This document shows, one piece after another, positions 44,767-58,684 of a DNA stretch of 64,000 bases. The stretch lies in the sequence record OQ420740.1; one strand, written 5' to 3'. The notes under the pieces were generated by a model. That model was not told the DNA's origin. It worked only from the letters and a program-made list of their open reading frames with translations, and made no database searches. Each line of letters opens with the position of its first letter. Position 1 is the stretch's first letter. A program made the position numbers and the translations under genes. This stretch comes from Escherichia phage B9-1.

Positions 44767-44874
44767 ATGGACTTCCTCCTTTTGATATTTTACCTGGCCG
44801 GATATTTTAAAATTCTTAGAAAATCAGAAAATGGATCGAAAACTAAAATGGATTTTTCAAGACAGGCGCGATAA
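44767..44874 (+). CDS. putative micro-protein (35 aa, hydrophobic N-terminus)
   Basis: ATG 8 nt after strong SD AAGGAGG; MDFLLLIFYLAGYFKIL...; below track cutoff. Confidence 0.3.
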   Translation: MDFLLLIFYLAGYFKILRKSENGSKTKMDFSRQAR

Positions 44875-45032
44875 GATGTGCTGCTCATTCTATCGTTCGC
44901 ACCGTACTTTAAGTTACTATTCCAGATTTTCCGCACATACTCTCACCCTTCTACCAGGACTTTCCCAGCTTACCTTTGACCCTTTATAACAATAAACCCA
45001 TTATTCTCAGTAGGTTTTGATACATCTCTCTC

Positions 45033-45198
45033 AGTACTCGATCTGTTTTTCGTTTCAAAGATTGAATTTTCTGAAAATTTTTCTCGATAAATTTCTTAGT
45101 ACTCGATCTGTTTTTCGTTTTCTGAATCAGATTTTCTGGAAATCGTTCCGGAGCTCGACCTGAAATTTTTGGGGACGAAATCGATTTTTCGTTTTCGG
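45033..45198. repeat. iteron-like direct repeats
   Basis: 23-bp AGTACTCGATCTGTTTTTCGTTT at ~45033-45055 and ~45098-45120, with degenerate copies GCTCGACCTGAAATTTTTGG (~45151) and AATCGATTTTTCGTTTTCGG (~45179). Confidence 0.55.
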
Positions 45199-45326
45199 AA
45201 ATGGATTTTTAAAATTTGTATATGGAAATACTTAAGGAGGTATTATTTTATATAGAATTGTCACGGTAGGTAATTAGCATGCTAACTAAATTTATGAAAT
45301 GCGAAAAGTTCTCATTTAGAATTTTG

Positions 45327-45380
45327 AATGATAATCATTCTCGTTTGCAGAATAACGGGCACCCCCGGTGATTGTCTCCC
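45327..45380. repeat. GC-rich conserved element, copy 1 (AATGATAAT...CCGGTGATTGTCTCCC)
   Basis: AT-rich arm AATGATAATCATTCTCGTTTGCAG then core CCGGTGATTGTCTCCC (45365-45380); repeated ~130 bp downstream and in inverse orientation at 54119. Confidence 0.5.
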
Positions 45381-45456
45381 GGCCCCTGTTGCCCCGGCTT
45401 GTTATTATAGTATCACACAGGACAAAGAAAGCAAGGATTTTTTGCATAAATTTTTA

Positions 45457-45514
45457 AATGATAATGATAACCGTTCTCATTTTATGCAGCGCCCATCCCC
45501 GGTGGTTGTCTCCC
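45457..45514. repeat. GC-rich conserved element, copy 2
   Basis: AATGATAATGATAACCGTTCTCATTTTATGCAG then core CCGGTGGTTGTCTCCC (45499-45514). Confidence 0.5.
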
Positions 45515-45699
45515 CCGTCACCGGTGCCTGCCGTCCTTTCGATAGGTATATTGTGCCACCTGGCGGGGCCGCTGTCAACACTTTTCAAAAAAATTCTAAC
45601 CTGATGCGCTAACCGTTGCAACCTGGCGGGGCCAGCCTGGCAGGGCTATGCTATAGGGTAGGCAACAACTGAAGAGGAGGTACAAAAATAAAAGGTAAT

Positions 45700-45867
45700 A
45701 TGATCCCTGGAAATGTAGCGATTAATGACGCTGAGGCTATCGCCCTGGTTGAAAAGGCTATGGCGGGAGCGTTGGAACATAAAGAAGAGTACGAAAAAAT
45801 GATGGTTAACCTGGCAGGGCGGCGGCTGGAGAATTCTGCCCAAAAAATAATTCTAACTAATGGTTGA
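45700..45867 (+). CDS. putative small protein (55 aa)
   Basis: ORF MIPGNVAINDAEAIALVEKAMAG... with coding-like composition; weak SD AAAGG; below track cutoff; overlapping antisense track ORF 45646..45843 looks spurious. Confidence 0.3.
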   Translation: MIPGNVAINDAEAIALVEKAMAGALEHKEEYEKMMVNLAGRRLENSAQKIILTNG

Positions 45868-45891
45868 CAGCTCGGATAGTTCTGTTATTCT
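45864..45891 (+). promoter_or_regulatory. sigma70-like promoter
   Basis: TTGACA, 16-bp spacer, TATTCT, ~50 nt upstream of ATG 45944. Confidence 0.45.
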
Positions 45892-45943
45892 TATCCTCGC
45901 AAGGTGAACAACACCACACTAATTAACAGAGAGGATAAAAATC

Positions 45944-46141
45944 ATGAACGCCTACGGAATTAAAGTACGTCGCAACACTCGCCAGGCCGTCACCGATCAA
46001 ATGATTTGCCAGGTGGACGTAACCATCAACAACGGGCAAGGCCTTTATAAATTCCGTCGCGGTCAGAGCTACACCCGGCAACAGCTTAATCGTTGCGCCC
46101 TGACAAAAGGCCAGATCAACCACTGGTTTAATAAAAAATAA
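45944..46141 (+). CDS. hypothetical small basic protein
   Basis: 65 aa; leader AGAGAGGATAAAAATCATG; antisense track ORF 45923..46123 rejected. Confidence 0.5.
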   Translation: MNAYGIKVRRNTRQAVTDQMICQVDVTINNGQGLYKFRRGQSYTRQQLNRCALTKGQINHWFNKK

Positions 46142-46144
46142 GTA

Positions 46145-46173
46145 TTGACATACAGTCTGACACCAAATACACT
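46145..46173 (+). promoter_or_regulatory. sigma70-like promoter
   Basis: TTGACA (46145-46150), 17-bp spacer, TACACT, ~30 nt upstream of ATG 46206. Confidence 0.5.
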
Positions 46174-46205
46174 AAAAGCACAAAAGACACTAAGAGGATA
46201 AAATC

Positions 46206-46604
46206 ATGAAAACCACTACCTTTAATTTTGATAATGCGGACTTTTCTTTTTCTGATGTCAAGAACTGCCGCCGTGATCGTGGATTTTACAAGGCTTATAA
46301 TCTGGTGGGCCTGGACGATGACAATAATTTGCACGAAGTAGCTGAGATCCGGTATTATGCCGCCGCCAGCGGGAACACTCAATACTGTGTTTTTTGGATT
46401 CACGACAACAAGAACAATAAGTACGGTTATACTGGCGGGAAGGCGAGCGGTCACGGTTACGATAAAGCTAATGCAGCACTTGAGAGCGCATTAAATGCTA
46501 TGGGGATCACTGCCAACGGCTGGATCTATGAAGAAGAGTTTTTGTCGGCACTTGCTAACCACCTGGGCTATAAAAAGCACATTGTAACATGCGCCCACGA
46601 ATAA
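46206..46604 (+). CDS. hypothetical protein
   Basis: 132 aa; leader TAAGAGGATAAAATCATG. Confidence 0.55.
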   Translation: MKTTTFNFDNADFSFSDVKNCRRDRGFYKAYNLVGLDDDNNLHEVAEIRYYAAASGNTQYCVFWIHDNKNNKYGYTGGKASGHGYDKANAALESALNAMGITANGWIYEEEFLSALANHLGYKKHIVTCAHE

Positions 46605-46610
46605 AAATTG

Positions 46611-46638
46611 TTGACACGCTGCAAAATTCAAGTAAACT
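46611..46638 (+). promoter_or_regulatory. sigma70-like promoter
   Basis: TTGACA (46611-46616), 16-bp spacer, TAAACT. Confidence 0.5.
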
Positions 46639-46648
46639 AATCACAAAA

Positions 46649-46667
46649 GGCGGGAATGTTTCCCGCC
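46649..46667 (+). other. 5' leader stem-loop
   Basis: GGCGGGAATGTTTCCCGCC, 7-bp stem, just downstream of the predicted transcription start and ~20 nt before ATG 46687; near-identical to the hairpin at 49189. Confidence 0.45.
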
Positions 46668-46686
46668 AACACAAAGGAAAAAGATC

Positions 46687-47091
46687 ATGAATAAGAACGT
46701 ACGCCGCATCATGAATGAACTGGCAAACGATGAAAAAATTATTGACATGCATTTGATCAACATTTGCCGCCGTTGTGTAACATATAACAACCGCGCCGCA
46801 AAAGCGCGTGAGATGAACGCAAAAGGCACCTTAAAGCCCTTCCAGGTGGTGGTAAAGGCCATTAAAGATGTAACTAATACGGCAAATCAGGTACAGGGGA
46901 ACACCAACGAAAGTACCAATATTGATCCGGCTTACATCATGAAACGGATCCGGACCTGCAAGAACAAAGAGCAGGTGTATAACGTCATAGACTGGTTGGA
47001 TTCCATGGGCGACGTGGTGTACAATAGGTTTTCTGCAGCTATCGAGATCCAGCTTGACAGGTTGGACGGTAAAGTACTGAAAACTTACTAA
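46687..47091 (+). CDS. hypothetical protein
   Basis: 134 aa; leader AAAGGAAAAAGATCATG. Confidence 0.55.
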   Translation: MNKNVRRIMNELANDEKIIDMHLINICRRCVTYNNRAAKAREMNAKGTLKPFQVVVKAIKDVTNTANQVQGNTNESTNIDPAYIMKRIRTCKNKEQVYNVIDWLDSMGDVVYNRFSAAIEIQLDRLDGKVLKTY

Positions 47092-47140
47092 GTTTATTTT
47101 TAGATGGCCTTGACTACAGGGCCATCAATAAAGTAAACTA
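47092..47140 (+). repeat. 46-bp repeated intergenic element, copy 1 (palindrome over a -35-like hexamer)
   Basis: GTTTATTTTTAGATGGCCTTGACTACAGGGCCATCAATAAAGTAAACT; 7-bp inverted repeat GATGGCC/GGCCATC encloses TTGACT. Confidence 0.5.
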
Positions 47141-47170
47141 ATCTCAGTTAAGCGAAAAAGGGGCTTTAAG

Positions 47171-47290
47171 ATGAGCACTACACGCCAATACACAAAGGTA
47201 ACTATTATCGCCTGCGTTGTCGGTTACATCCTGGCGCAAATGTTAATGAGTAGCGCTAACAGTTTTGCAAAATTTTTCTTAAATTTTTAA
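47171..47290 (+). CDS. putative hydrophobic micro-protein (39 aa)
   Basis: ATG after SD AAAGGGGC; MSTTRQYTKVTIIACVVGYILAQMLMSSANSFAKFFLNF; below track cutoff. Confidence 0.3.
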   Translation: MSTTRQYTKVTIIACVVGYILAQMLMSSANSFAKFFLNF

Positions 47291-47318
47291 TTGACAAGCT
47301 AACCCAAATCAGTATACT
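47291..47318 (+). promoter_or_regulatory. sigma70-like promoter
   Basis: TTGACA (47291-47296), 16-bp spacer, TATACT, then an imperfect hairpin CGGGAAAACTTCCCAG and SD AAAGGAGA before ATG 47370. Confidence 0.5.
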
Positions 47319-47369
47319 TAAACACGTAAACGGGAAAACTTCCCAGAACACACAAAAGGAGAAAACACC

Positions 47370-47711
47370 ATGACTACTATGACCGCCGCAGAAAAAGCTA
47401 TTCAGGTTGCCGCACTGAAAAAACAGATCGCAGACCTTGAGAACAAGATCGATAACTTTGAAATCGACGAGGACAAGTACGACGAAAACTATGATGAATG
47501 GTTAGACGAGGTCTACGGCGAAATCATGATCGGAAACATTTCTTTTCTTCCGTCGCGTATCCTCAAGGAGCTAGATCCTATCGCTTACCGCTGCGGATTT
47601 AGCGACTACATCGACAGCCTGGATATTGAGGACGATGAAGAGTACCAAGAATTGCAAACAGAGTTGGAAGAAGCAAAAGAAGAGCTTGCAGAACTGGAAG
47701 AAAACGAGTAA
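47370..47711 (+). CDS. hypothetical acidic coiled-coil protein
   Basis: 113 aa; Glu/Asp-rich with heptad-like spacing. Confidence 0.55.
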   Translation: MTTMTAAEKAIQVAALKKQIADLENKIDNFEIDEDKYDENYDEWLDEVYGEIMIGNISFLPSRILKELDPIAYRCGFSDYIDSLDIEDDEEYQELQTELEEAKEELAELEENE

Positions 47712-47760
47712 GTTTATTTTTAGATGGCCTTGACTCCAGGGCCATCAATAAAGTAAACTT
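47712..47760 (+). repeat. 46-bp repeated intergenic element, copy 2
   Basis: AGTTTATTTTTAGATGGCCTTGACTCCAGGGCCATCAATAAAGTAAACT, directly after the stop of 47370..47711. Confidence 0.5.
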
Positions 47761-47797
47761 TACACTGTTAACACTGAACTAATGAGGAGTTAAAACC

Positions 47798-48043
47798 ATG
47801 GCAGCACTAATCACCAAATACTATGCCCCTACCAACACCAAAAGCGCCCGGATCATGGTAAAAGGCTTCGGACGTAAAAAGGTTTACACCTGGGATTATT
47901 CCCTAGACATGGAAGACAACTACACCAACGCGATGACCGATTTTATTAACGAGCTGAATACGCGGATCTTAACAAATTATAAAATTACCGACATTGCTTA
48001 TATAGGTGAAGGCGGGATCTGTTTTGTAGGCATTGTGAAATAG
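47798..48043 (+). CDS. hypothetical small protein
   Basis: 81 aa, SD GAGGAG. Confidence 0.5.
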   Translation: MAALITKYYAPTNTKSARIMVKGFGRKKVYTWDYSLDMEDNYTNAMTDFINELNTRILTNYKITDIAYIGEGGICFVGIVK

Positions 48044-48095
48044 TTATTTTTTCGGTGGTCCTGGTTGCAGGGCCATCTATAAAAATAATTTACTA
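48044..48095 (+). repeat. diverged copy of the 46-bp intergenic element
   Basis: TTATTTTTTCGGTGGTCCTGGTTGCAGGGCCATCTATAAAAATAATTTACT, same T-run / inverted repeat / -10-like layout. Confidence 0.4.
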
Positions 48096-48118
48096 ACACC
48101 ATGAAAGGAGAAAGTAAC

Positions 48119-48472
48119 ATGATCAGCGGTGCAAGTTTTATTATTGGCGCTATTGCTACGGCTTTAATTGTAAACAAGATCCAATCCAAAAACGAAAAAG
48201 AGAGCAACGCCCTTGCAGAATATCCATTTTGGACATTTAACGATAACGAAGATTATATTATAAAGTATAAAAATAAAGAAGGTGACCAAGTAACACCGCG
48301 ACCGATCCCGGCTTACAAGATGCAGGAAACACTATACCGCCTGGAGGCGGGGGGCGCAAAAATTGTGGACTTTTGGGGATACGATCACACAGATCAGGAA
48401 GTTATAAAGCGCCGTATCCGGGCTATTCAGGCCAATATTGAAGTTAGCAAGGGGGGAATATATGAAGATTAA
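48119..48472 (+). CDS. hypothetical membrane-anchored protein
   Basis: ATG 48119 with SD AAAGGAGA (track start 48101 lacks an SD); N-terminal hydrophobic segment ISGASFIIGAIATALIV. Confidence 0.5.
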   Translation: MISGASFIIGAIATALIVNKIQSKNEKESNALAEYPFWTFNDNEDYIIKYKNKEGDQVTPRPIPAYKMQETLYRLEAGGAKIVDFWGYDHTDQEVIKRRIRAIQANIEVSKGGIYED

Positions 48473-48659
48473 TTTTGAGAAGATTGTAAAGCGATCTCAT
48501 GATTCCGAAGAGCTGCCGGAACGCCGCCAGCGTAACAATAAACTGAATAAGCCAAAAAGATTTGGAAAGATCTGGCGAAATCATTATGATCGTAAATTGC
48601 CTGGCCTACTTTTGGAACGTGAACGACAGGCAGAACGATACCGCCATAAAGACAAATAA
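48462..48659 (+). CDS. hypothetical small basic protein
   Basis: ATG 48462 with SD AAGGGGGG; overlaps the upstream gene by 11 nt. Confidence 0.4.
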   Translation: MKINFEKIVKRSHDSEELPERRQRNNKLNKPKRFGKIWRNHYDRKLPGLLLERERQAERYRHKDK

Positions 48660-48667
48660 CAACCAAC

Positions 48668-48696
48668 GCCCCGCCATTGTGCGGGGCTTTTTATTT
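48668..48696 (+). terminator. rho-independent terminator
   Basis: GCCCCGCCATTGTGCGGGGC (7-bp stem) followed by TTTTTATTT. Confidence 0.7.
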
Positions 48697-48840
48697 CTAT
48701 CCTACGAATAGCGCCCCTGGTTGGCCCTATAAGCGCCAAAAAGGCCCCCACCTATGCAATCCCCTTTCTTAACCTGAAAACATCGCCCAGGGCCGTTTTA
48801 TGGCGTTAAAAATATTATTGACAGTGATTTTATTTAAAGC

Positions 48841-48868
48841 TTGACATCTTAAACAGGTTAGCTATACT
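48841..48868 (+). promoter_or_regulatory. sigma70-like promoter
   Basis: TTGACA (48841-48846), 16-bp spacer, TATACT; a second TTGACA lies ~20 bp upstream. Confidence 0.5.
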
Positions 48869-48900
48869 AACCACATCAAAGAGAGAAAGGAGTAAACGCC

Positions 48901-49161
48901 ATGCGTAAATTAAAAAATTTTGATAAGGTTGATGTTGTCCTGAATAATTTTTACTACTGCAACAACAAGGCCATTTGGTGGCGTGATAGTTCCACCGATA
49001 AAGTCAAGGCGCGCTTTCTCCAGGGGCACTGGCAAGGCCGCCCAGTGATTAAAATCATGGGGCAATTGGTAGCGTTTAAAAATTGCCGCCGTGTTGATGA
49101 CGTTGAAGAGATCTTGAACATTTTACGCCACAATAATTTAAAAAATAGTGTTGACAAGTAA
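48901..49161 (+). CDS. hypothetical small protein
   Basis: 86 aa, SD AAAGGAG. Confidence 0.5.
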   Translation: MRKLKNFDKVDVVLNNFYYCNNKAIWWRDSSTDKVKARFLQGHWQGRPVIKIMGQLVAFKNCRRVDDVEEILNILRHNNLKNSVDK

Positions 49162-49178
49162 ATCTCGATAAGTATAAT
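49151..49178 (+). promoter_or_regulatory. sigma70-like promoter
   Basis: TTGACA (49151-49156), 16-bp spacer, exact TATAAT (49173-49178); overlaps the end of the upstream gene. Confidence 0.55.
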
Positions 49179-49188
49179 TAAACACACA

Positions 49189-49207
49189 GGCGGGAAAACT
49201 TCCCGCC
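49189..49207 (+). other. 5' leader stem-loop
   Basis: GGCGGGAAAACTTCCCGCC, perfect 7-bp stem, ~10 nt after the -10 and ~30 nt before ATG 49236. Confidence 0.45.
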
Positions 49208-49235
49208 ACTAACAAAGAAAACAGGAGAAAATATC

Positions 49236-49859
49236 ATGACCACCGTTAACATTACCACAGGTTACAATTTATCTTTCGACGTGCTGACCGACGAACAAAA
49301 AGAAAAAGCCGTTGAAATGGTCCGCGAAAGAGAAGAACACAGCGGGGATAACTTTTTTGCAGAAAGTGTAATTGAATACTATAAAGAATATGTTTTTCCA
49401 GAGTATGGCCTTGAAGATACCGAAGTACATTGGTCCGGCTTTTGGTGCCAGGGTGACGGCGCGTCAATCAGTGCTGAAAACGTTGATTTAGAAAAATTCT
49501 TGCGTAAAGTCAAATCTCTGACTAAATTCCGCTCAATTCGTAACTTGTTCGGCACAATGCACGATGGCGAGCTATCTGCAAGTGTTGAGCGTGATCCATA
49601 TAGCCGCCATAGTCACGAAAACACTGTAAGCGGGTACATTGATACTACATGGCTAGACCTGACAGCCAAGCAAGAAAGTAAGGTTGAAGAGCTGGAAGAG
49701 CTGATCACCGAGACGGTACGGGAGCTATCCCGCAAGGTTTATGTAGACCTGGAGGAGGCCTATCTTGAACAGTTTACTACCGAAAACCTGATCGGCCTTA
49801 TTGAAGCCAATGATTGGCGGTTTAATGTGGATGAATATGGGGAGATGAGTTTTTCATAA
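49236..49859 (+). CDS. hypothetical protein
   Basis: 207 aa; SD ACAGGAGA; no family recognised by eye. Confidence 0.55.
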   Translation: MTTVNITTGYNLSFDVLTDEQKEKAVEMVREREEHSGDNFFAESVIEYYKEYVFPEYGLEDTEVHWSGFWCQGDGASISAENVDLEKFLRKVKSLTKFRSIRNLFGTMHDGELSASVERDPYSRHSHENTVSGYIDTTWLDLTAKQESKVEELEELITETVRELSRKVYVDLEEAYLEQFTTENLIGLIEANDWRFNVDEYGEMSFS

Positions 49860-49867
49860 ATAAAGTG

Positions 49868-49895
49868 TTGCAATAATCTAAAAACCTGCTATATT
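49868..49895 (+). promoter_or_regulatory. sigma70-like promoter
   Basis: TTGCAA, 16-bp spacer, TATATT, followed by hairpin GGGGCGAGATGACTTGCCCC and leader AAAGAGGATAACATCATG. Confidence 0.45.
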
Positions 49896-49948
49896 AAAAC
49901 TCAAGGGGCGAGATGACTTGCCCCACACAAAACAAAGAGGATAACATC

Positions 49949-50329
49949 ATGAAAAACACCACCAAGGCTATTGACACCGTTATGTTTAACCTGGTTACAT
50001 TCCGTGAAGATATGAAAGATCTTCCACGTGAAACAGTGTGCGACCATATCGAAAACTATCGCAAACTTATTAAAGAATTGCCATTAAAACGAGATCAGTA
50101 CGCGGCTAACGCTATGCTTAACGCCATGATCAAAAAGATGATCCAGTGTGATTTAACTCTGGCCTATGATTATGCAGGTGGTCGTTTTGCAGTATACAAT
50201 CAGCCCGTGCCTGGTATGAGCACCACCGAAGAATTGCACGCGCTCAATCTAAAACAAGACGTGTGGGATAATATGCCCCGCGTGGTGGTGTGGGCAGAAA
50301 GCGGAAAGATTTACGGCGATAATTTTTAA
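49949..50329 (+). CDS. hypothetical protein
   Basis: ATG 49949 with SD AAGAGGA (track start 49913 lies in the promoter/hairpin). Confidence 0.5.
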   Translation: MKNTTKAIDTVMFNLVTFREDMKDLPRETVCDHIENYRKLIKELPLKRDQYAANAMLNAMIKKMIQCDLTLAYDYAGGRFAVYNQPVPGMSTTEELHALNLKQDVWDNMPRVVVWAESGKIYGDNF

Positions 50330-50395
50330 TCAGGTAACAGGCGGCGGCATATTTGCCGCCCTATTGTTAAGAAGAATTGTAAGAGGGTACATAGA

Positions 50396-50767
50396 ATGGA
50401 ATTTATTATTTTGGCTATATTAGTTGCCTTGTTTAACGCCTGGATCGCTGGCAAGATGGGCAGATCTGCCTTTTTATGGTTTATTATATCTATCTTCCTG
50501 GGAGTGGTTGCAACTATTGTATTGGTTATCCTTGCAATTGTTGATAAGGGGAATAATAGAAAGGGTAAAGTATTTTCAGACCTGTACGACGCTCAAACAT
50601 TTGTCAACGCCTACTACAGCGATCTTCCAGTCTCCCTACGTTGCAGCCTTGCACAACAGGTTTTCGATGAAGCTAAAACCAGAGATCACGCCCATGAGAT
50701 ATGTTTAACTGAGGCGGATCGCCTATTTGAGAGGAATAGAAAATATGTGGACCAACCGTTTAAATAA
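50396..50767 (+). CDS. hypothetical membrane protein
   Basis: 123 aa; two hydrophobic helices (FIILAILVALFNAWIA, FLWFIISIFLGVVATIVLVILAIV). Confidence 0.5.
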   Translation: MEFIILAILVALFNAWIAGKMGRSAFLWFIISIFLGVVATIVLVILAIVDKGNNRKGKVFSDLYDAQTFVNAYYSDLPVSLRCSLAQQVFDEAKTRDHAHEICLTEADRLFERNRKYVDQPFK

Positions 50768-50966
50768 TGCCACGTTAATTAATCCCTTTAGTGAAGATTT
50801 GAAGCCAGCCGCCTGGCGTGATGGATTCAATAACGAAAGCTTTATTTTCAGGCCTGATCTTAAGGAATTTTATAACAATGGATCGAACAACGACAGAGAT
50901 AATTTTTCTCGTAATGTGCGTGGCGATAATACTCCTGGGGGCCATTGCAAACCACGTCACTGCTAA
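50745..50966 (+). CDS. hypothetical small protein (uncertain)
   Basis: ATG 50745 with SD GAGAGGA; conflicts with an alternative-frame hydrophobic ORF (MDRTTTEIIFLVMCVAIILLGAI, ending 51003); the real gene is not resolved. Confidence 0.3.
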   Translation: MWTNRLNNATLINPFSEDLKPAAWRDGFNNESFIFRPDLKEFYNNGSNNDRDNFSRNVRGDNTPGGHCKPRHC

Positions 50967-50986
50967 CAGGAGGGAAGGGGGAGACG

Positions 50987-51106
50987 ATGACACCCAAGGA
51001 TAAGCCCCGCACCGATAAGGCGCGCCGTGTTATGGTATGGCTTGAGATCATCGCCCTTGAAATATTGTTAGGCGTAGGGATGTATTTTATCGCTGTAAGT
51101 AACTGA
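50987..51106 (+). CDS. putative hydrophobic micro-protein (39 aa)
   Basis: ATG after SD GGGGGAG; MTPKDKPRTDKARRVMVWLEIIALEILLGVGMYFIAVSN; followed by a terminator. Confidence 0.3.
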   Translation: MTPKDKPRTDKARRVMVWLEIIALEILLGVGMYFIAVSN

Positions 51107-51110
51107 TAAC

Positions 51111-51150
51111 GGCCCCCGATCCCTGGGGGCCTAACTTTTTAAATTTTTTC
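51111..51150 (+). terminator. rho-independent terminator
   Basis: GGCCCCCGATCCCTGGGGGCC hairpin followed by TAACTTTTTAAATTTTTT. Confidence 0.65.
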
Positions 51151-51160
51151 TCCCTGGGTG

Positions 51161-51189
51161 TTGCAATCCGATCCAGAATATGGATAATA
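51161..51189 (+). promoter_or_regulatory. sigma70-like promoter
   Basis: TTGCAA, 16-17-bp spacer, GATAAT, then hairpin GGGGAGCAATCCCC and leader AAAAAGGAGAAACAAAATG; shares AATATGGATAATAA with the promoter at 51975. Confidence 0.45.
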
Positions 51190-51243
51190 ACAATCAACGG
51201 GGAGCAATCCCCACCAACACAAAGACTAAAAAGGAGAAACAAA

Positions 51244-51444
51244 ATGAGCAACAATATCCGCGTTATTAACTTCAAAAAAGAAGAAAAAATTGCCGTGCTG
51301 ATTGACGGTCAAGAAATCTTTAAAGGCGATTATGAAGATCATCAGGTAGCGATCAGTATTACCCGCGTGATTGGTTACCATAATTTTTACCCCCAAGGCG
51401 CTGAGGCAGCAGTAAAACGAATTAAAGAGATTGTAGGCCTGTAA
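51244..51444 (+). CDS. hypothetical small protein
   Basis: 66 aa, SD AAGGAGA. Confidence 0.5.
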   Translation: MSNNIRVINFKKEEKIAVLIDGQEIFKGDYEDHQVAISITRVIGYHNFYPQGAEAAVKRIKEIVGL

Positions 51445-51491
51445 AATTTATTTTTAGATGGCCTTGACTCCAGGGCCATCAATAAAGTAAA
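51445..51491 (+). repeat. 46-bp repeated intergenic element, copy 3
   Basis: AATTTATTTTTAGATGGCCTTGACTCCAGGGCCATCAATAAAGTAAA, identical core to 47712..47760. Confidence 0.5.
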
Positions 51492-51528
51492 TTTAAACCC
51501 TGTTAAAATAATCAGTGCAAAAGGAGTA

Positions 51529-51834
51529 ATGATCATGTTTATCCAGGCTAATAATCTTTATTTCTTTGATGGTCAGATCGTAGACGGCGTGGAGGTGGAA
51601 ATCACCGGGTGCCCTGGCGGTCAGGTTATGACTTTTCGGAATAATGCCTTTGATGATTCTCATATCGTTATGAGAATGGAAGTTAGTAAGCTGGACGATA
51701 AGAAAACACTCATTGATTATTCCGTGAAAGATCATCCAGACTACCACATGATCTATGGCGATTTGTGCATTGTTGACCGTGACAAGGTGGGCGGCATTGT
51801 GATCGCTATTGTGAACGATGTTTTCTCTAAATAA
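51529..51834 (+). CDS. hypothetical protein
   Basis: 101 aa, SD AAAGGAG (second ATG at 51535 also possible). Confidence 0.5.
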   Translation: MIMFIQANNLYFFDGQIVDGVEVEITGCPGGQVMTFRNNAFDDSHIVMRMEVSKLDDKKTLIDYSVKDHPDYHMIYGDLCIVDRDKVGGIVIAIVNDVFSK

Positions 51835-51974
51835 TTCCGGCAAATGATGCAAAATAAGGCCCCTGGCAGGGCCTGCAGCGATATAATCACATAAAGGCTA
51901 TGCGGTTGCATGGCCTTTATTATTTTAGCGTTACAGCTGCCCCCAAGGCGCTTAAAAAATTTTTAAAGAAGTAC

Positions 51975-52002
51975 TTGCATCAAGTCCTACAATATGGATA
52001 AT
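51975..52002 (+). promoter_or_regulatory. sigma70-like promoter
   Basis: TTGCAT, 16-bp spacer, GATAAT, ~60 nt upstream of ATG 52064. Confidence 0.45.
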
Positions 52003-52063
52003 AAAGGGTGTCGGGGGGCGGTGAGGCCTCCAATCATTAACCAGATAGATAGGAGTTAAAACC

Positions 52064-52348
52064 ATGGCTATTGTTACCGTTGGCGATGTAGTAGAAATGG
52101 AAGCCAAATACTTAAAAGCGGGTATGCATATCATACGGAATGATCAAGAATTGTTATTAACCATGGTTGAATATAATCCCGGTCAGGATTATCCTAGCGT
52201 TGACTACTTTTTCCAGTATGTTGATGAAGAATTAAAAGAGGATGAGGCTTATCAGGGTGAATTTTGCAATTTCTTTTGCTCTGACGAGGTTGTAAAAGTT
52301 ATTTATCAACCTGGTGTACCTTTCCCGTTGCACGCCATCAATAAATAA
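52064..52348 (+). CDS. hypothetical small protein
   Basis: 94 aa, SD TAGGAG. Confidence 0.5.
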   Translation: MAIVTVGDVVEMEAKYLKAGMHIIRNDQELLLTMVEYNPGQDYPSVDYFFQYVDEELKEDEAYQGEFCNFFCSDEVVKVIYQPGVPFPLHAINK

Positions 52349-52414
52349 GCCTGGCGGGGCCGAAAAGGCCCCTCCTGAAATTATGAAAAAAAAAATAAAG
52401 AGGGGTGAATCATC

Positions 52415-52651
52415 ATGATTGAACAAATTAAAAGCACTAAACCGAACGTTAACGGCAATGTTTCTCACTTTATTGGTGATAATGAAAGAGGGACACCGTA
52501 CGCTGCGGTAACAGTTCAACCGAACGGGGATTATTGGTTTACTGTATATGGATCTTATTCTTTTGGGCGTCCGGTGCATGATAGAATTTTAAAAGTAGCT
52601 AATCCGACCGGGAAGAATATCACAGCAGAAAAATTTTTTGAAAATAGTTGA
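52415..52651 (+). CDS. hypothetical small protein
   Basis: 78 aa, SD AAGAGGGG. Confidence 0.5.
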   Translation: MIEQIKSTKPNVNGNVSHFIGDNERGTPYAAVTVQPNGDYWFTVYGSYSFGRPVHDRILKVANPTGKNITAEKFFENS

Positions 52652-52675
52652 CATGACCGTATAAGACTGTAGTAT
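52648..52675 (+). promoter_or_regulatory. sigma70-like promoter
   Basis: TTGACA, 16-bp spacer, TAGTAT, then hairpin GGGGGCAAGCCCC and leader AAAGAGGATAAAAATCATG. Confidence 0.45.
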
Positions 52676-52723
52676 ATAAATCAAAGGGGGCAAGCCCCAC
52701 CAACCACAAAGAGGATAAAAATC

Positions 52724-52903
52724 ATGGCTATTATTGCAAAGACCGAGATTGTAGGGTTAGATTCTATTCTCCTGGCATATGAGGAGGCTATAGAAATGTA
52801 TGTGGTTTCCTATGGTGAGTATATCCGTGAATATAAATCTATTGATCTAGCTTTTGAATGTTATATTCGCCAGGTCAATAAAGCATATGATGATTATCGT
52901 TAA
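52724..52903 (+). CDS. putative small protein (59 aa)
   Basis: ATG after the conserved leader AAAGAGGATAAAAATC; one residue under the track cutoff. Confidence 0.4.
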   Translation: MAIIAKTEIVGLDSILLAYEEAIEMYVVSYGEYIREYKSIDLAFECYIRQVNKAYDDYR

Positions 52904-52995
52904 AATAGTTTGACAACAAACAACACCGTCTAACAAAGCATAATACATAAGGTGGTGGAATGGTCCGCCACCTGGAGCAAGAAGAGGAAAACAAG

Positions 52996-53100
52996 ATGAA
53001 ACAGAAATTAATTGATGCGATGATCCTGGTTATTGCCCTGGGTATTGGCCTGATTGCAACCATGGCTAATATGATCTTGTCTTCCAACGGTATCGGATAA
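52996..53100 (+). CDS. putative transmembrane micro-protein (34 aa)
   Basis: ATG after SD GAAGAGGAAA; MKQKLIDAMILVIALGIGLIATMANMILSSNGIG; preceded by hairpin GGTGGTGGAATGGTCCGCCACC. Confidence 0.35.
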   Translation: MKQKLIDAMILVIALGIGLIATMANMILSSNGIG

Positions 53101-53109
53101 GGTGGGCAA

Positions 53110-53325
53110 ATGATCACCAACAAAACAGGCAAAACAGAATTTTTACGCAACTTGCAGATCGGCAAGCCTGAGATCTGGTATTGCACTAAAACACCACGTG
53201 ACGAAATGAAAGATTTTACCGCCACGCTGAAGCGGGTAAAGATATCTATCACGCAGAAAAAAGCCTTGATAGTGGTTGAAGGTGAGATCCCTCAAGCCGT
53301 TGTTATAGTTGAGCGTACAGCATAG
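53110..53325 (+). CDS. hypothetical small protein
   Basis: 71 aa ORF. Confidence 0.45.
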   Translation: MITNKTGKTEFLRNLQIGKPEIWYCTKTPRDEMKDFTATLKRVKISITQKKALIVVEGEIPQAVVIVERTA

Positions 53326-53416
53326 TTTAATTTATACAGATACCCGAAAATTAACCAACAAAGCATAAACAGGCGGTTACTGCCGCCTTAAACGTAGCAG
53401 AAAGAGGATAGACACA

Positions 53417-53701
53417 ATGAAAAAGATGATCGCAGTGGTTGCCCTGGTTGTTGGACTTAATGCGCCTGTAATGGCTAAAGAGTTGGCAAAAGAGGTAGAT
53501 CTAACTGATATCCATGCCGTCAATCAAATCGGGGTTACTTATCGCCTATGCCTTGCCGCAAAAACTTTTAAGGACGGCACTACAGAGTACTACGGATTCG
53601 AGGGCGTCCGGTGCGGTGAACTTGCTCGCGACCTTAAAGAAGATCCAGACCTGGAGGATCTGCCGATAACCGTAAACGGGAAAACTTACGTGAACCGTTA
53701 A
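53417..53701 (+). CDS. secreted small protein
   Basis: 94 aa; SD AAAGAGGA; signal-peptide-like N-terminus MKKMIAVVALVVGLNAPVMA. Confidence 0.5.
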   Translation: MKKMIAVVALVVGLNAPVMAKELAKEVDLTDIHAVNQIGVTYRLCLAAKTFKDGTTEYYGFEGVRCGELARDLKEDPDLEDLPITVNGKTYVNR

Positions 53702-53703
53702 CC

Positions 53704-53838
53704 ATGAGAAAGATAATTATTACCATAGGGATCGTGGCGGCAATGTTGGCGATCTTTCCCCTTATGGTTAGGTATGTGCTGATCAGTGTTGTCCTGGTAG
53801 TCAGCGATCTAATGTTATATATTAACTCATTGTTTTAG
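53704..53838 (+). CDS. putative hydrophobic micro-protein (44 aa)
   Basis: ATG 2 nt after the upstream stop; MRKIIITIGIVAAMLAIFPLMVRYVLISVVLVVSDLMLYINSLF; no clear SD. Confidence 0.3.
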   Translation: MRKIIITIGIVAAMLAIFPLMVRYVLISVVLVVSDLMLYINSLF

Positions 53839-53846
53839 GTGGAATA

Positions 53847-54038
53847 ATGACAGCAGAAGAAGTTAAAAAAGTACTGGCAGTACTGCGCTACCATAATCAC
53901 AGAAAGGTAATAGATGATCCTGATTATGTAGATTCAAGCCTAGAAGAGGATACACTACAAGCTATCAGCCATATGCAAGAATTGTTTAAGCGTATGACAG
54001 AGAAGAACAGATCCGACTACATAGGCGAAAAAATATAA
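53847..54038 (+). CDS. hypothetical small protein
   Basis: 63 aa, SD AGGTGG. Confidence 0.45.
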   Translation: MTAEEVKKVLAVLRYHNHRKVIDDPDYVDSSLEEDTLQAISHMQELFKRMTEKNRSDYIGEKI

Positions 54039-54056
54039 TCCTTAAATACTATAAAG

Positions 54057-54083
54057 CAGGGCTTGCAACGGTCCTGTTTTTTG
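54057..54083 (+). terminator. putative rho-independent terminator
   Basis: Short hairpin CAGGGCTTGCAACGGTCCTG followed by TTTTTTG. Confidence 0.45.
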
Positions 54084-54118
54084 TTACACTTGTTTCACGG
54101 GTGGCACCTGGCGACGGG

Positions 54119-54134
54119 GGGAGACAATCACCGG
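54119..54134 (-). repeat. GC-rich conserved element, inverted copy 3
   Basis: GGGAGACAATCACCGG is the reverse complement of the core at 45365-45380; flank CCCCGTCGCCAGGTGCC resembles copy 2; sits just upstream of the promoter at 54167. Confidence 0.5.
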
Positions 54135-54166
54135 GCCTGCCTGTCATATAAAAACTATAAAAACCG

Positions 54167-54195
54167 TTGACACCTGCCAGGCGGTGGGGTAACAT
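54167..54195 (+). promoter_or_regulatory. sigma70-like promoter
   Basis: TTGACA, 17-bp spacer, TAACAT, then hairpin GGGCAAAAGTGCCC and leader AGAAGAGAGGAAAACGCCATG. Confidence 0.5.
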
Positions 54196-54249
54196 TTATC
54201 TTGAAGGGGCAAAAGTGCCCACACAACAACCAGAAGAGAGGAAAACGCC

Positions 54250-54522
54250 ATGTTAGGCTGGATTAACCAAGAAGTCGAATCACGTTTTAACGCTATTTGG
54301 GATCTCATCGAAAAAGAGGACGGAACATCAAGCCCTTATCTCAATAATCTTGAATTCCATTTCGTGGAAGCGATGAACGCAGAACATGATCACGAAGGTG
54401 GTGCGGACGAGTTCGCTAAAGGGTATGGCTTCAACAATGCCAACGAAATGATCGAGGCGGTTGTACTCCAGGCTGAGGAAGATTATCAATTAAAAACGCT
54501 TGAATTCTGCCGCCGTAAGTAA
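54250..54522 (+). CDS. hypothetical small acidic protein
   Basis: 90 aa. Confidence 0.5.
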   Translation: MLGWINQEVESRFNAIWDLIEKEDGTSSPYLNNLEFHFVEAMNAEHDHEGGADEFAKGYGFNNANEMIEAVVLQAEEDYQLKTLEFCRRK

Positions 54523-54584
54523 TAAGATAATGACACGGGCCAAAAGGCCCACTAAACCAGGACCACATAAAGAGGAAAAACATC

Positions 54585-54848
54585 ATGAAACGTCTGGATC
54601 AGCTCAAACTAGTTCAGTACATGGCTTACAAAATTCTTGAAGTCCAAAAAGGTAGCAAAAAAGAAGTTTGCGAGAAAGCTTACAAGATCTTTACTCGCAA
54701 AAAAGACGATTGGATGTTACGCCAGACTAAAAAGGCTGATATCTTGGGGTGCCTGGAAGAAGAGATCCGGCTTGAAGAACAAGAAGAGATCCGCCGTAGT
54801 GAGGCAGATTATCAGGCAGCTTGGGAAAACTGGATGAGCAACAAATAA
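54585..54848 (+). CDS. hypothetical small protein
   Basis: 87 aa, SD AAAGAGGAAA; the overlapping track ORF 54637..54837 in another frame is rejected. Confidence 0.5.
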   Translation: MKRLDQLKLVQYMAYKILEVQKGSKKEVCEKAYKIFTRKKDDWMLRQTKKADILGCLEEEIRLEEQEEIRRSEADYQAAWENWMSNK

Positions 54849-54914
54849 TACAACAAGCTACATGGTCAGGGGCAATAAAGCCCCTTGATCACATAAAAAT
54901 TATGCTATCCTTGG

Positions 54915-54943
54915 TTGACAGGGATCGGCAGTTTTGCTATATT
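54915..54943 (+). promoter_or_regulatory. sigma70-like promoter
   Basis: TTGACA, 17-bp spacer, TATATT, ~50 nt upstream of ATG 54993. Confidence 0.5.
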
Positions 54944-54992
54944 CTTTTTTGAAGGGAAGTTGTAAGAAAATTAACTAAGAGGTAAAAACACC

Positions 54993-55412
54993 ATGAACAT
55001 TAAATCTGATAATCCGGCATATAGCTTTGATAACGCTTTTTGTCACGGTCCGGCGGCGAAAGGATTCGAAATCGATGGTAAACTAGTTATTGTTAATGTT
55101 GACGGGGAAGAGGTTGCAGTATATCCGGTGGCAGACGTTAAAAGCCGTCTACAATGCCGCATGGATGTTACCGCCTACCAGCTTGATCCGGTCCGGGTAG
55201 TTGCCCTAGTCCTGGAAGAAGAAATTAAAGCAATGCACCACAGCAACAAGTTTATTGGTGACGCTCAAGATAATATGCAGGTATGCCGCCATAAAGTTAA
55301 TGAAGTACTTAAAGAGTACGGCTATAAGGATTTAATGATCAAGCGTGATGAAAAATTCCGTTACCGTAACGACCTGGCAAATCGGATTTTTGAAATATAC
55401 GAATCATTATAA
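54993..55412 (+). CDS. hypothetical protein
   Basis: 139 aa, SD TAAGAGG; last gene of the rightward array. Confidence 0.55.
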   Translation: MNIKSDNPAYSFDNAFCHGPAAKGFEIDGKLVIVNVDGEEVAVYPVADVKSRLQCRMDVTAYQLDPVRVVALVLEEEIKAMHHSNKFIGDAQDNMQVCRHKVNEVLKEYGYKDLMIKRDEKFRYRNDLANRIFEIYESL

Positions 55413-55430
55413 TTTCTTAACTGAATTATC

Positions 55431-55458
55431 AAGGGGCTTAAAGGCCCCTTTCTTTTTG
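55431..55458 (+). terminator. rho-independent terminator
   Basis: AGGGGCTTAAAGGCCCCT hairpin followed by TTCTTTTTG, 20 nt after the stop at 55412. Confidence 0.7.
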
Positions 55459-56074
55459 TCTGCTCTTCTCCTACCATAAACGGCCCTACCTGGCAAGTGG
55501 AATAATTGACTAGCCATCAATCCCACACACTGTACAAATATACATATAAAATAACTATTGCATAATCTTTCACTGTGTGGTAGCAGGGCCATTTTTACCC
55601 GTTTTCTCTCCCAAAAGTGCACGTAATGCCGCTATTGCACAAATTTTAACCTGATGCACATCTCCAATATCTTGTCAACAACTAAAAATCTTTATAAGTC
55701 ATACACTTACACAACATAGAAAGCGTGTCCTACGCGAAAAATCGAGTATAACTATAGCCGCCAGATCTCAGAATTCACGTACGAACACCATTCTATAGTC
55801 TGCAAAGTATTTATTCCAACCACAGAATAACGGAATAGTCAATACCTGCATAAAATAATTATTCGTGTAAACTGCATAACATAAATCAGCTCAGGTGTCA
55901 ACATTTTTCGTAAACAGTCCGAAATTATCACGATGAGTTATCATAAACAGAGAAATCTTTAGTCGTCTAATGTTTACTGTACATTACTATACTGACTGGA
56001 ATCATTAGATGACTAAGAGAAAGATAAGAAATAATTAATAATGTAATTGTTTTACCTGTAACAATAAGGCAACT

Positions 56075-56094
56075 ATGCAAACGAATGGCATGGC
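56075..56094. repeat. 20-bp direct repeat, copy 1
   Basis: ATGCAAACGAATGGCATGGC, identical copy 213 bp downstream. Confidence 0.6.
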
Positions 56095-56213
56095 GCGACG
56101 GAGTCGCGACATAATATAAAAGCAGTAACAATCACCCCCGTGATAGTTTTTCTGCAATCTATTACTCAGATCATAGTTGCCTTGTATTTAGTTAATCATG
56201 ACATAACAAGCAA

Positions 56214-56241
56214 GGCAACTATAGATCTTCTAATAGTTGCC
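56214..56241. repeat. 28-bp palindrome
   Basis: GGCAACTAT AGATCTTCTA ATAGTTGCC: perfect 9-bp inverted arms; the same arm sequence (AGGCAACTAT / ATAGTTGCCT) also occurs at ~56066 and ~56172. Confidence 0.55.
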
Positions 56242-56287
56242 CTGCTTTTATATTATGTCATAGATTGTTAGCTTGTTAATTGTTTTC

Positions 56288-56307
56288 ATGCAAACGAATG
56301 GCATGGC
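56288..56307. repeat. 20-bp direct repeat, copy 2
   Basis: ATGCAAACGAATGGCATGGC. Confidence 0.6.
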
Positions 56308-56333
56308 TTATCATCTCTGTGTAAACTGTTCAG

Positions 56334-56359
56334 GCGTAAACAGTCTATGCGTAAACAGT
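56334..56359. repeat. tandem 11-bp iterons (GCGTAAACAGT x2; third copy at 56653-56663)
   Basis: GCGTAAACAGT at 56334-56344 and 56349-56359, preceded by inverted partial TGTAAACTGTT; third copy at 56653. Confidence 0.55.
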
Positions 56360-57866
56360 GAGATATGGAATAGTAACAGCCGTTATTGTGTCATATTGTG
56401 TGACATTGTGTCCGGTGTCTGGTGTCCAGTGTGTCAGACAAGTTTTTCTCCTCTTTGTCAAGTGCTGCATGAAAAATTTACAAACTGGTATGGTAGCATT
56501 TTTGCGGCCCTGTTTACATTCAGGAATGTATGTATAATCCTTGTTGTGTGGGCGTTTAGACGTCTGGACGGTCAGAAGTCTGCAGGTCAATATCTAATCT
56601 ATTGGTTGCTAACTATATCCCACACAAATAGTAAGAAATATAATTGTTATATGCGTAAACAGTAACCCATGTTATCAATCCCTGCATGTATCGCCAGTGG
56701 TGCGCATAATGGGTATTATGTTAAATTGCCCGTAATGATAACCATTCTCACAATGATAGGTATTCTCATTCACTCCCACAAGATAGATTGCAAATGTTGT
56801 GCCACTGTGTGAACGGCCTGGCCTATTAATTTGCCTCACTGCCTCGATATTTGAGAATTATTATAAAAATGAGAAGTATTCCCATTCCGTCCGCCTGGCA
56901 GCACTCCTGTAGGACAGGCACAAAATCGGGGTATAACTGGACCTGTTCAGATATTTCTGGCTGACTCTTCAGGCCTGTGTGGGAAAAGCCAACCTCTCCG
57001 GCGGCGGGGAGGGGTCAATTAAAAAATTTACGTGGTGTATGAAGCGCTCTTCAGGTAAGGCAGGTATTATGGGATGAAACCCTCTTCAGATGATGATATT
57101 TGTGGGTGTGATATTTGCTGGAAAGCCAGATATGACGGGACTCCCGGCAGGGGTGGGGTAGTACAGACAGGGAAAATGTGGGAATGTGATGGAGTAAATT
57201 GATCAGGTAGGTAGGATATGGAATATGTTACAAGTATGTTAAATATGGAGGTAGGATATTTGTAAGATTTGTGTGTAAAATCAAATACTTAAGTGGTGTT
57301 GTGGTATTTTCTATAAATAATTCAAGTTTAATAGGTGATATTTGTCTCCATCCACTTTGTGTGGTAAACAGATTCTAATTGAATTGGTTTACAAGTGTAT
57401 ATAAAGTATACAAATTAAAGATATAAGAAACCCCCCTCCCCCTTCGGCTACCATTCACCTTTTCCTCTGACTGGTACTTAAACACTTATTCAGACTCTTC
57501 AGGTTATCACCCATATACTATATGGCAGTGACTGGTGTCCTCCGGCCCCTCTTTCGTCACCCGTCCGCTTCGCCATGCTAATGCCATAGCCAAATGTTCG
57601 GTTGTTCACCCTGTTCACTCAGGTGTATCTCCATACCCCTTCAAACCGAAGAGAACAGAAAACCCGAATTACTCGGTAAAAGAAAAGAGAAGAACTTAAT
57701 TTTATCAAGATAGGCAAGAATGTCAAGGGATGACTGCTCACTAAACAAGCAAACAGTCATGTGTGGTGGGTAAGTAACTGTGTTGGTAGGAAATTTAGTT
57801 GAAAGATGTTATAGGTGCCTCCAGAACCTTAGCTGGGCAGCTAAACCTGCAAAGCAGACTTGTGTG

Positions 57867-58082
57867 TCAGTCCAAAGGTTCATCTACTACTTCACTGAAA
57901 TCAATGGTCAGAGTCTCTTCCCAACCATCAATCTCAGCACCGGAGTAGAGATCTTTAGGGTCTACATCAAGGGCTTCCGCAACAGCATCTATATTTAACA
58001 CCTCTGGCAGGTATGATTCATCAAATTCAAGGTAAATCAGGCCACGAGTGTTGTCAGCCCCACCAAATATTTCTATTTTCAT
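57867..58082 (-). CDS. small acidic protein
   Basis: ATG 58082 with strong SD GAGGAG (track start 58148 is a GTG without SD); 71 aa, Asp/Glu-rich. Confidence 0.5.
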   Translation of the reverse strand: MKIEIFGGADNTRGLIYLEFDESYLPEVLNIDAVAEALDVDPKDLYSGAEIDGWEETLTIDFSEVVDEPLD

Positions 58083-58202
58083 GAAATCTCCTCTGGAAAT
58101 GAGAGTGTGAACGGGGTTTATACGTTCCAATACGATGGAATTATGCACGTTTGCCTCTTCAGGCCATGCTTTAGCATGATAAACTTATGTGGGCTCGGTG
58201 CT

Positions 58203-58388
58203 TCATAGTCTCCCACCTCTGAACTCTTCGTGCTCAGGCATAATAGAGAACCAGATGGCTATGATATCTTCCCACGTTAGGTCATCAGCCTCAGGATCCA
58301 CCTGGGACGGAGATAGAGAATCCTCAGAATTGAAGTTTTCCTCTGTCACCCCTTCAGATGTCTCTTTAGATGCATGTGTGTTGGTCAT
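58203..58388 (-). CDS. small acidic protein (uncertain)
   Basis: 61 aa ORF, Glu/Asp-rich like neighbours, weak SD. Confidence 0.35.
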   Translation of the reverse strand: MTNTHASKETSEGVTEENFNSEDSLSPSQVDPEADDLTWEDIIAIWFSIMPEHEEFRGGRL

Positions 58389-58656: not shown

Positions 58657-58684
58657 ATAAAGAAAAGGACGCCACAGAGCGTCC
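58657..58684 (-). terminator. rho-independent terminator (minus strand)
   Basis: Minus-strand hairpin GGACGC...GCGTCC followed by TTTTCTTTAT, just downstream of 58710..59009. Confidence 0.55.

Follow-up and report, generated by a model that had tools for sequence, protein, structure and literature searches.

Three Copies of a Conserved Noncoding Element in Escherichia Phage B9-1: A Candidate Module of Promoter, Hairpin RNA, and Fur Box

A G+C-rich motif occurs three times in noncoding DNA of Escherichia phage B9-1, within the 64,000-nucleotide stretch of record OQ420740.1 analyzed here (the window), and is part of a real, conserved, and undescribed noncoding module. Each copy probably supplies the loop of a small RNA hairpin of an undescribed type, which would be transcribed from a promoter belonging to that copy. 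The best reading of the data, to which we give an even chance, is a module composed of a promoter, a hairpin RNA, and a box for the host iron sensor Fur. The promoters, the RNA, and the Fur boxes are predictions from sequence and models. The window represents an rV5-like coliphage (Vequintavirus), and the region is 91–98% identical to rV5-like phages (best matches ECP26 and S127 BCL3; rV5 itself is DQ832317).

Motif Copies, Relatives, and Promoters

All three copies are exact matches. Copy 1 (45365–45380) and copy 2 (45499–45514) read CCGGTGATTGTCTCCC and CCGGTGGTTGTCTCCC on the plus strand, corresponding to GGGAGACAAUCACCGG and GGGAGACAACCACCGG in minus-strand RNA, and copy 3 (54119–54134, plus strand) reads GGGAGACAAUCACCGG, the reverse complement of the 16-mer. 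The window holds exactly three sites for the 16-mer and no others even at up to three mismatches, a tolerance at which 0.58 sites are expected by chance and three were reached in 1 of 100 shuffles. Three copies, one of them inverted, had been reported in an earlier note on this DNA; that observation is confirmed, and its interpretation is partly supported. The conserved core is a 12-mer within GAGACAAWCACC-N5-CTGC(C), in which the 5-nt spacer varies, and the unit comprises about 130 bp (promoter, hairpin, and Fur box) rather than the 16–32 bp described earlier. We also considered the 16-mer as a widespread viral element and rejected this, as the more than 100 enterobacterial matches in an IMG/VR scan lie mostly in a prophage capsid gene and represent an unrelated coding coincidence.

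A covariance model seeded with 13 sequences, all of them from genera other than Vequintavirus, returned the three copies as its three best matches in the window, all on the GAGACAA strand. Copy 1 was matched over 45405–45347 (46.5 bits, E = 9e-10), copy 3 over 54102–54146 (20.0 bits), and copy 2 in its core only (45519–45494, 15.6 bits); the next match reached 12.8 bits (E = 0.46). Beyond the window, the model picked up family members in Seunavirus (GAP31, EC152, and PVP-SE1), in Henunavirus (Hena1), in Mydovirus contigs, in POP18, in Phapecoctavirus (anhysbys and ETEC-TG), and in the PAK_P3-like Pseudomonas phages of Nankokuvirus. The family spans at least four Vequintavirinae genera together with Phapecoctavirus and the PAK_P3-like phages, and the 76-nt stretch of Fur box and element is 81–89% identical across the genera of enterobacterial phages (Blast). 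The motif is thus present in related genomes, and the earlier description of the element as noncoding and conserved holds. No homologue of the element was found in 5,426 E. coli genomes. Rfam 15 gave no window match at the gathering threshold, nothing over the element at E ≤ 5 in 44800–59000, and nothing in nine related loci at E ≤ 1, and the searchable literature contains nothing on the motif strings or on rV5 small RNAs.

In the deposited annotation of rV5, ORF198 covers copies 1 and 2. Its equivalent in the window, 45328–45612, spans both copies and starts at the Fur box, where ATGATAATCATT gives MIII, that is, the Fur box read as codons. No such reading frame is annotated over the homologous element in GAP31, PVP-SE1, or Hena1. 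We rejected the coding reading on these two grounds, and the frame is probably not a gene. In OY978796 (L003 2004–2157), the homologous Fur box and element have been labeled tRNA-Met and tRNA-Ile. ARAGORN detects no tRNA in this Klebsiella locus, which is therefore probably misannotated, and none in the window.

When read as GAGACAAWCACC, every copy has a predicted sigma-70-type promoter about 30 bp upstream, with −35 and −10 hexamers, a spacer of 16–18 nt, and the A2 and T6 of the −10 box. The copy 1 promoter (45407–45434, minus strand) has TTGCTT (45434–45429) and TACTAT (45412–45407) separated by 16 nt, with TGA before the −10 box (scan 8/12), and it aligns position for position with promoters of other genera. 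Copy 2 is preceded by TTGACA-17-CACAAT with a TG extension (45550–45578, minus strand; scan 10/12, score 11.5) and copy 3 by TTGCAA-16-TACACT with TGT before the −10 box (54063–54090, plus strand; score 9). This placement indicates leftward reading (minus strand) for copies 1 and 2 and rightward reading (plus strand) for copy 3. The plus-strand reading given earlier for copies 1 and 2 thus concerns the wrong strand. The view of the element as a regulator site preceding genes is not supported either; the predicted transcripts of copies 1 and 2 point away from the small-gene array.

We oriented 27 distinct elements from the window and other phages as GAGACAAWCACC and compared the best sigma-70 score upstream. 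The mean was 9.3 on the GAGACAA strand; the opposite strand averaged 7.6, and random windows averaged 7.0. Scores of at least 9 were found for 17 of the 27 elements versus 9.8% of background windows, and in 20 of the 27 the −10 box ends 27–31 nt ahead of the motif. Between genera, the hexamers are kept and the spacer sequences have diverged. Exactly 6 nt separate the −10 box from AU(A/G)GCG, which begins with the first base of the helix P1 described below, in GAP31, PVP-SE1, Hena1, POP18, the Klebsiella Mydovirus, and anhysbys. The same gap leads from TACTAT to A45400 in copy 1 and from TACACT to A54097 in copy 3.

The promoter of copy 3 is interwoven with the end of the array. The last array gene is followed by a terminator hairpin (54057–54082, plus strand; CAGGGC...GGTCCTG, then T6), for which a fold of 54040–54150 (plus strand) gives an 11-bp stem, and the −35 box TTGCAA of the copy 3 promoter lies inside the loop of this hairpin. 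The same terminator-loop design is found in rV5 (L001), L059, L204, L173, EC152, and L297.

We give hardly any credence to the view that the copies are functionless leftovers of duplication or scars of recombination. In its favor, copies 2 and 3 match the family model only weakly. Against it stand the cross-genus identity in noncoding DNA given above, the retention of the core in Pseudomonas phages, and the maintenance of the promoters despite their diverged spacers.

A second conserved leftward block, about 100 nt long and with its own promoter (GAACTACCGGCGATCCACCTTCC...GCCCCGCCTTTTCGCCGTGGGGTGGCG), is present in GAP31 (L226 1670–1775) and also in L227, L228, L229, L002, and L003. It has no Rfam match, and Vequintavirus has copy 2 in its position.

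The Predicted Hairpin

In all three copies the motif lies in the apical region of a predicted hairpin of 45–55 nt. The copy 1 RNA (45349–45400, minus strand) would start at about A45400, with CCCGUUAU (45359–45352) as the 3′ strand of P1 and the motif in the loop. Copy 2 (45486–45543, minus strand) would start at about 45543 and form its hairpin over 45531–45486. The copy 3 RNA (54097–54144, plus strand) would begin directly with P1, in which ACGGGUGG (54097–54104) pairs with CUGCCUGU (54137–54144). P1 thus begins right at the predicted +1 for copies 1 and 3, where its 5′ strand pairs with the stretch after the conserved CUGC(C); for copy 2 it begins at about +13. The folding energies are −16.4, −20.1, and −19.2 kcal/mol for copies 1, 2, and 3, respectively. 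A single hairpin is predicted per copy, with no consistent long-range helix besides P1.

In the unfitted alignment of the 13 sequences from other genera, the 8-bp P1 is paired in 88.5% of cells, versus 24–58% for slid-partner controls. In 33 distinct model-fitted sequences it is paired in 84.8%, with a covariation of 0.161 against 0.124 in shuffles (1 of 500 as high). P1 includes 28 G-U/U-G cells (one U-G), which are mismatches on the opposite strand; these frequent G-U pairs favor the GAGACAA strand as the RNA. The mean folding z is −0.93 on this strand versus −0.42 on the other.

Several results weigh against an RNA module of this kind. In the covariation check proposed earlier, the fitted alignment exceeds its shuffles, and the unfitted 13-sequence alignment does not. 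A model-fitted alignment leans toward structure, and the better figures stem from it. RNAalifold on a plain MAFFT alignment gave no consensus structure, and no consistent inner helix closes the loop, as its registers differ between genera. Within the window, the fold z values are +0.39, −2.27, and −0.46 for copies 1, 2, and 3, so two of the three fold no better than shuffles. None of the three window copies has an intrinsic terminator or U run after the hairpin. PAK_P3, L280, and L094, which have no Fur box, carry UUUU(U) directly after P1, a pattern seen in only 3 of about 9 Fur-less copies. No complementary target of at least 11 nt for the motif RNA was found elsewhere in the window, and no transcriptome of an rV5-like phage was found in the searchable literature. 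A preprint on Hi-C of PAK_P3 calls the gene-free loci of its early region "devoid of transcription", which would count against strong transcription at the element locus if it is among them.

These modest structural statistics also speak for an alternative that we consider unlikely, in which GAGACAAWCACC-N5-CTGC(C) is a duplex DNA site bound by a phage or host protein 20–45 bp past the three promoters, acting as an operator, roadblock, or domain boundary, and the RNA is incidental. Such a site would account for conservation that lies mainly in the primary sequence with a variable 5-nt spacer, and for the placement of copies at either end of the early array in three genera. It would also suit the loop or hairpin that, according to the same preprint, the PAK_P3 early region forms, with gene-free loci as its anchors. 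However, the 12-mer is not palindromic, and the motif is absent from the other gene-free locus of PAK_P3 (62.8–63.7 kb; L352 62,817–63,739). The flanks stay complementary although their sequences differ among copies 1, 2, and 3, which a duplex-binding site does not need. The G-U pairs suit an RNA on one strand, and P1 starts exactly at +1 in six genera. Overall, the hairpin structure is plausible, with no more than moderate support; promoter geometry and sequence conservation carry most of the weight. Of the functions suggested earlier (regulator binding site, boundary element, or small structured RNA), the last fits best.

Other readings of the motif were tried and rejected. For a sigma-54 promoter, for IHF, CRP, and LexA sites, and for lambda/P22 boxB, the spacing or key bases do not fit the consensuses. 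A CsrA site with a GGA loop fails because GGA is not conserved (GCGAGA and ACGAGA variants). A T5-like injection stop signal was dropped because the PAK_P3 element lies in the middle of its record.

Fur Boxes, Iterons, and Array Borders

As the earlier note stated, a stretch of the form AATGATAAT...TGCAG precedes copies 1 and 2; it is missing at copy 3. It had been taken, as AATGATAAT...TTTGCAG, for an arm of the repeat; it proves to be a separate feature, a near-consensus host Fur box. Compared with the 19-bp Fur consensus GATAATGATAATCATTATC, which includes a 7-1-7 inverted repeat (PMC4506495), Fur box 1 (45324–45342; TTGAATGATAATCATTCTC) matches at 15 of 19 positions and Fur box 2 (45460–45478; GATAATGATAACCGTTCTC) at 16 of 19, with the core AATGATAATCATT exact. 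Shuffles give an expectation of 0.48 sites per window at 15/19 or better. We infer from these matches that the host iron sensor Fur binds the predicted boxes at copies 1 and 2.

The 17-mer GAATGATAATCATTCTC of Fur box 1 recurs unchanged in rV5, Seunavirus, and Mydovirus, and POP18 and anhysbys have one to four such boxes, about 30 bp apart, ahead of the element. In most copies from enterobacterial phages, the Fur box starts about 10 nt past the hairpin. The second copies in Seunavirus and Mydovirus have a Fur-like box, GGTAATGAGAATTACTATC, after the hairpin at the same spacing; the unit therefore consists of promoter, hairpin, and Fur box.

The window has additional Fur-like boxes in a large noncoding stretch, at 56731–56767 and about 56853–56890 (CGTAATGATAACCATTCTC, 15/19; CACAATGATAGGTATTCTC; TGAGAATTATTATAAAAATGAGAAGTATTCCCATT). 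The exact 17-mer also occurs in 103 viral contigs of many kinds (IMG/VR L125–L225), often in arrays of two to five boxes (L134, L145, L171, L179, L210). Judging from such sequences, Fur boxes may be common in phage genomes; the searchable literature makes no mention of them in lytic phages.

The position of the Fur box admits another explanation, which we regard as very unlikely. Copies 1 and 2 would be read on the plus strand from a Fur-repressed rightward promoter that overlaps the Fur box (TTGAAT-18-CAGAAT) and makes a C-rich RNA with CCGGUGAUUGUCUCCC, whose UCUCC could pair with Shine-Dalgarno sequences, and the leftward RNA would be the antisense partner. At copy 1 the Fur box covers the −35 box and the spacer, the classical position of a repressor. 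A second candidate, ATGAAA-17-TAGAAT, lies at 45294–45322, and L046 has TTTAAA-18-TATATT at the same place. Yet among 19 variants of the supposed −10 box, 7 carry G or T as the critical second base (for example, CTGAAT, CGGAAT, and GGGGAT), and the promoter is absent from Fur-less copies such as copy 3 and PAK_P3. Promoter scores on the antisense side are near background, and shuffled sequences fold as well as the plus-strand RNA of copy 1 does (z = +0.57).

The predicted transcript of copy 1 runs toward three iteron-like tandem units of 65–74 nt (45024–45209; ACTCGATCTGTTTTTCGTTT..., repeat family D1), which lie beyond copy 1, past the Fur boxes. These units resemble, and are probably homologous to, the triple repeats beside the element in PAK_P3 (AGGTACTCGACAGATTTTCAC, three times) and in contig L297 (GGTCTCGACAGATTTTCAC, three times). 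In Felix O1, no element was detected in 1–45 kb, though iteron-like repeats are present: a gene-free region before p030/p032 (L353 7990–8170), with four CATTTTCA...GTGCAGGTA repeats, resembles the iteron locus. The gene-free PAK_P3 locus L352, which lacks the motif and lies about 12.7 kb away from the element locus, holds seven or more ATTGTGTAAC-like repeats that run in both directions, and it may be one of the reported Hi-C anchors of this phage.

The iterons raise the question of a replication origin at copies 1 and 2, a decidedly unlikely reading in our assessment. A G-rich transcript running toward the AT-rich stretch and the iterons would activate or prime replication, as at T4 oriF or in ColE1 RNA II, and the motif would be part of this origin transcript. 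The transcript is indeed G-rich, the three repeats lie 190–380 nt downstream of the copy 1 start, and PAK_P3 and L297 share both the linkage and the orientation of iterons and element. Moreover, the locus is gene-free and comes after the replication module, whose genes, 5′ of the element, encode a DnaB-like helicase, a family A DNA polymerase, a PIF1-like helicase, and a DNA methylase. On the other side, iterons are missing at copy 3 and, in other genera, at the second copies; the locus shows neither DnaA boxes nor GATC enrichment, and the GC skew has no inflection here. The U run after the hairpin in PAK_P3-type copies would release the RNA.

The small plus-strand open reading frames run from about 45.7 to 56.7 kb, and the part at about 45700–54038 is bracketed by the motif copies. 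That the copies flank this array in inverted orientation was correctly noted before. An outward-facing pair around a small-gene array of 7–9 kb recurs in three genera; in Seunavirus EC152 it lies at 303–362 (minus strand) and 8842–8900 (plus strand), and the Mydovirus contig L204 has the same layout. The genome had also been called AT-rich; at 43.6% G+C the window is not markedly so, and this description was overstated.

Further promoter-like sites adjoin the element. A strong promoter for the next genes, TTGACA-17-TAACAT (54167–54195, plus strand), lies 23 nt past the copy 3 hairpin and is the equivalent of rV5 P168. The promoter scan gave an additional leftward site, TTGCAA-17-TAGAAT (45593–45621, minus strand), upstream of the copy 2 promoter and back to back with the region where the gene at 45700 should have its rightward promoter. 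Promoters adjacent to the element have G+C-rich spacers that repeatedly contain a CCTGGCGGGG/CCAGGCGG motif (45558–45567, 45621–45630, and 54173–54189), and CCWGG is found in these spacers in relatives as well, including PAK_P3. As a genome-wide class, promoters with G+C-rich spacers show no enrichment.

A gene-free stretch from 56665 to about 58500 lies where the plus-strand gene block meets the minus-strand one. Many Vequintavirus GenBank records begin at the equivalent of about 56.9–57.9 kb, and Mydovirus KPP-1 has a 514-bp direct terminal repeat in the corresponding region, with Fur-like boxes there too. The stretch is probably the physical genome end.

Proposed Mechanism and Significance

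We propose that the host sigma-70 polymerase starts about 7 nt past each −10 box, so that every copy would form a small transcription unit read as GAGACAAWCACC. For copies 1 and 3, the 5′ strand of P1 would consist of the first bases transcribed; for copy 2, about 13 nt of RNA would precede the helix. The conserved 12-mer would be displayed in the apical part of the 45–55-nt hairpin. The product, a short noncoding RNA or a 5′ leader, may act through its invariant loop on a partner shared by the phages or their hosts. Just downstream, iron-loaded Fur would block or limit read-through; some Fur-less relatives have a U run in this position. Copies 1 and 2 would be transcribed leftward, away from the small-gene array and toward the Fur boxes and the three iterons, and copy 3 rightward from the promoter built into the array terminator. 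The promoters with their fixed spacing, the P1 complementarity, the match to the Fur consensus, and the conservation across genera are seen directly in the sequence, on which an RNA product, an action of its loop on a partner, and a limit on read-through by Fur would build.

The proposed module resembles several known systems in part. IS10 RNA-OUT, CopA of plasmid R1, and Sok of hok/sok are likewise short RNAs of about 50–70 nt with their own constitutive promoter and a single hairpin with a conserved working loop. Here, however, no convincing convergent target promoter was found, the copies lie at the array borders of a virulent phage, and a Fur box follows the hairpin. RyhB and PrrF share the coupling of a small RNA locus to a Fur box. 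The box of RyhB overlaps its promoter and represses initiation, whereas the box here lies about 58–77 nt past the start, and neither RNA shows sequence similarity to the element, in keeping with the absence of an Rfam match. HK022 put and the 6S RNA of lambda pR′, which works with Q, are structured RNAs at or near +1 of an early promoter, and copy 3, like the promoter-proximal RNAs of lambdoid phages, stands just upstream of further genes and terminators. In put, two stem-loops act on downstream terminators, in contrast to the single predicted hairpin of the B9-1 copies, which falls short of a put-type RNA; copies 1 and 2 have no genes downstream in their own direction, and PAK_P3-type copies look self-terminated. 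T4 oriF and oriG, ColE1 RNA II, and lambda ori resemble copy 1 in having a promoter directed into an AT-rich iteron region beside replication genes. They differ in that iterons are found here at one locus only, with no DnaA boxes, and the element also occurs elsewhere without iterons. Of the same class are the 5′UTR-derived ncRNA candidates found by ONT-cappable-seq in Pseudomonas phages (PMC10914365), which are short promoter-proximal RNAs of virulent phages, including PAK_P3. PAK_P3 carries a homologue of the element, and the text of that study does not mention this locus. The kind of product, a phage small RNA or leader, is thus already known; what is new is the coupling to a Fur box and iterons and the placement at the array borders.

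A broader suggestion, which we make tentatively and hold to be rather unlikely, is that this promoter/hairpin/Fur-box module couples the early region of virulent phages from several genera to the host iron sensor. Fur would gate read-through to the iterons or to the next genes. The boxes could also soak up Fur as the phage DNA replicates, thereby derepressing host iron uptake; this idea arises from the further Fur-like boxes near the probable genome end and from the Fur-box arrays in about 100 unrelated viral contigs.

Phages of the rV5-, phAPEC8-, and PAK_P3-like groups are widely used as therapeutic or model phages, and their early regions are annotated almost wholly as hypothetical open reading frames. 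Here a conserved noncoding module takes the place of a probably spurious frame and, in one relative, of miscalled tRNAs, with precise positions for the predicted start sites, loop, helix, and Fur boxes. The module suggests that lytic development of these phages is connected with the iron status of the host. Should the RNA or the Fur coupling prove real, the element would represent an RNA family not described so far, and virulent phages would have a new means of sensing the physiology of their host.

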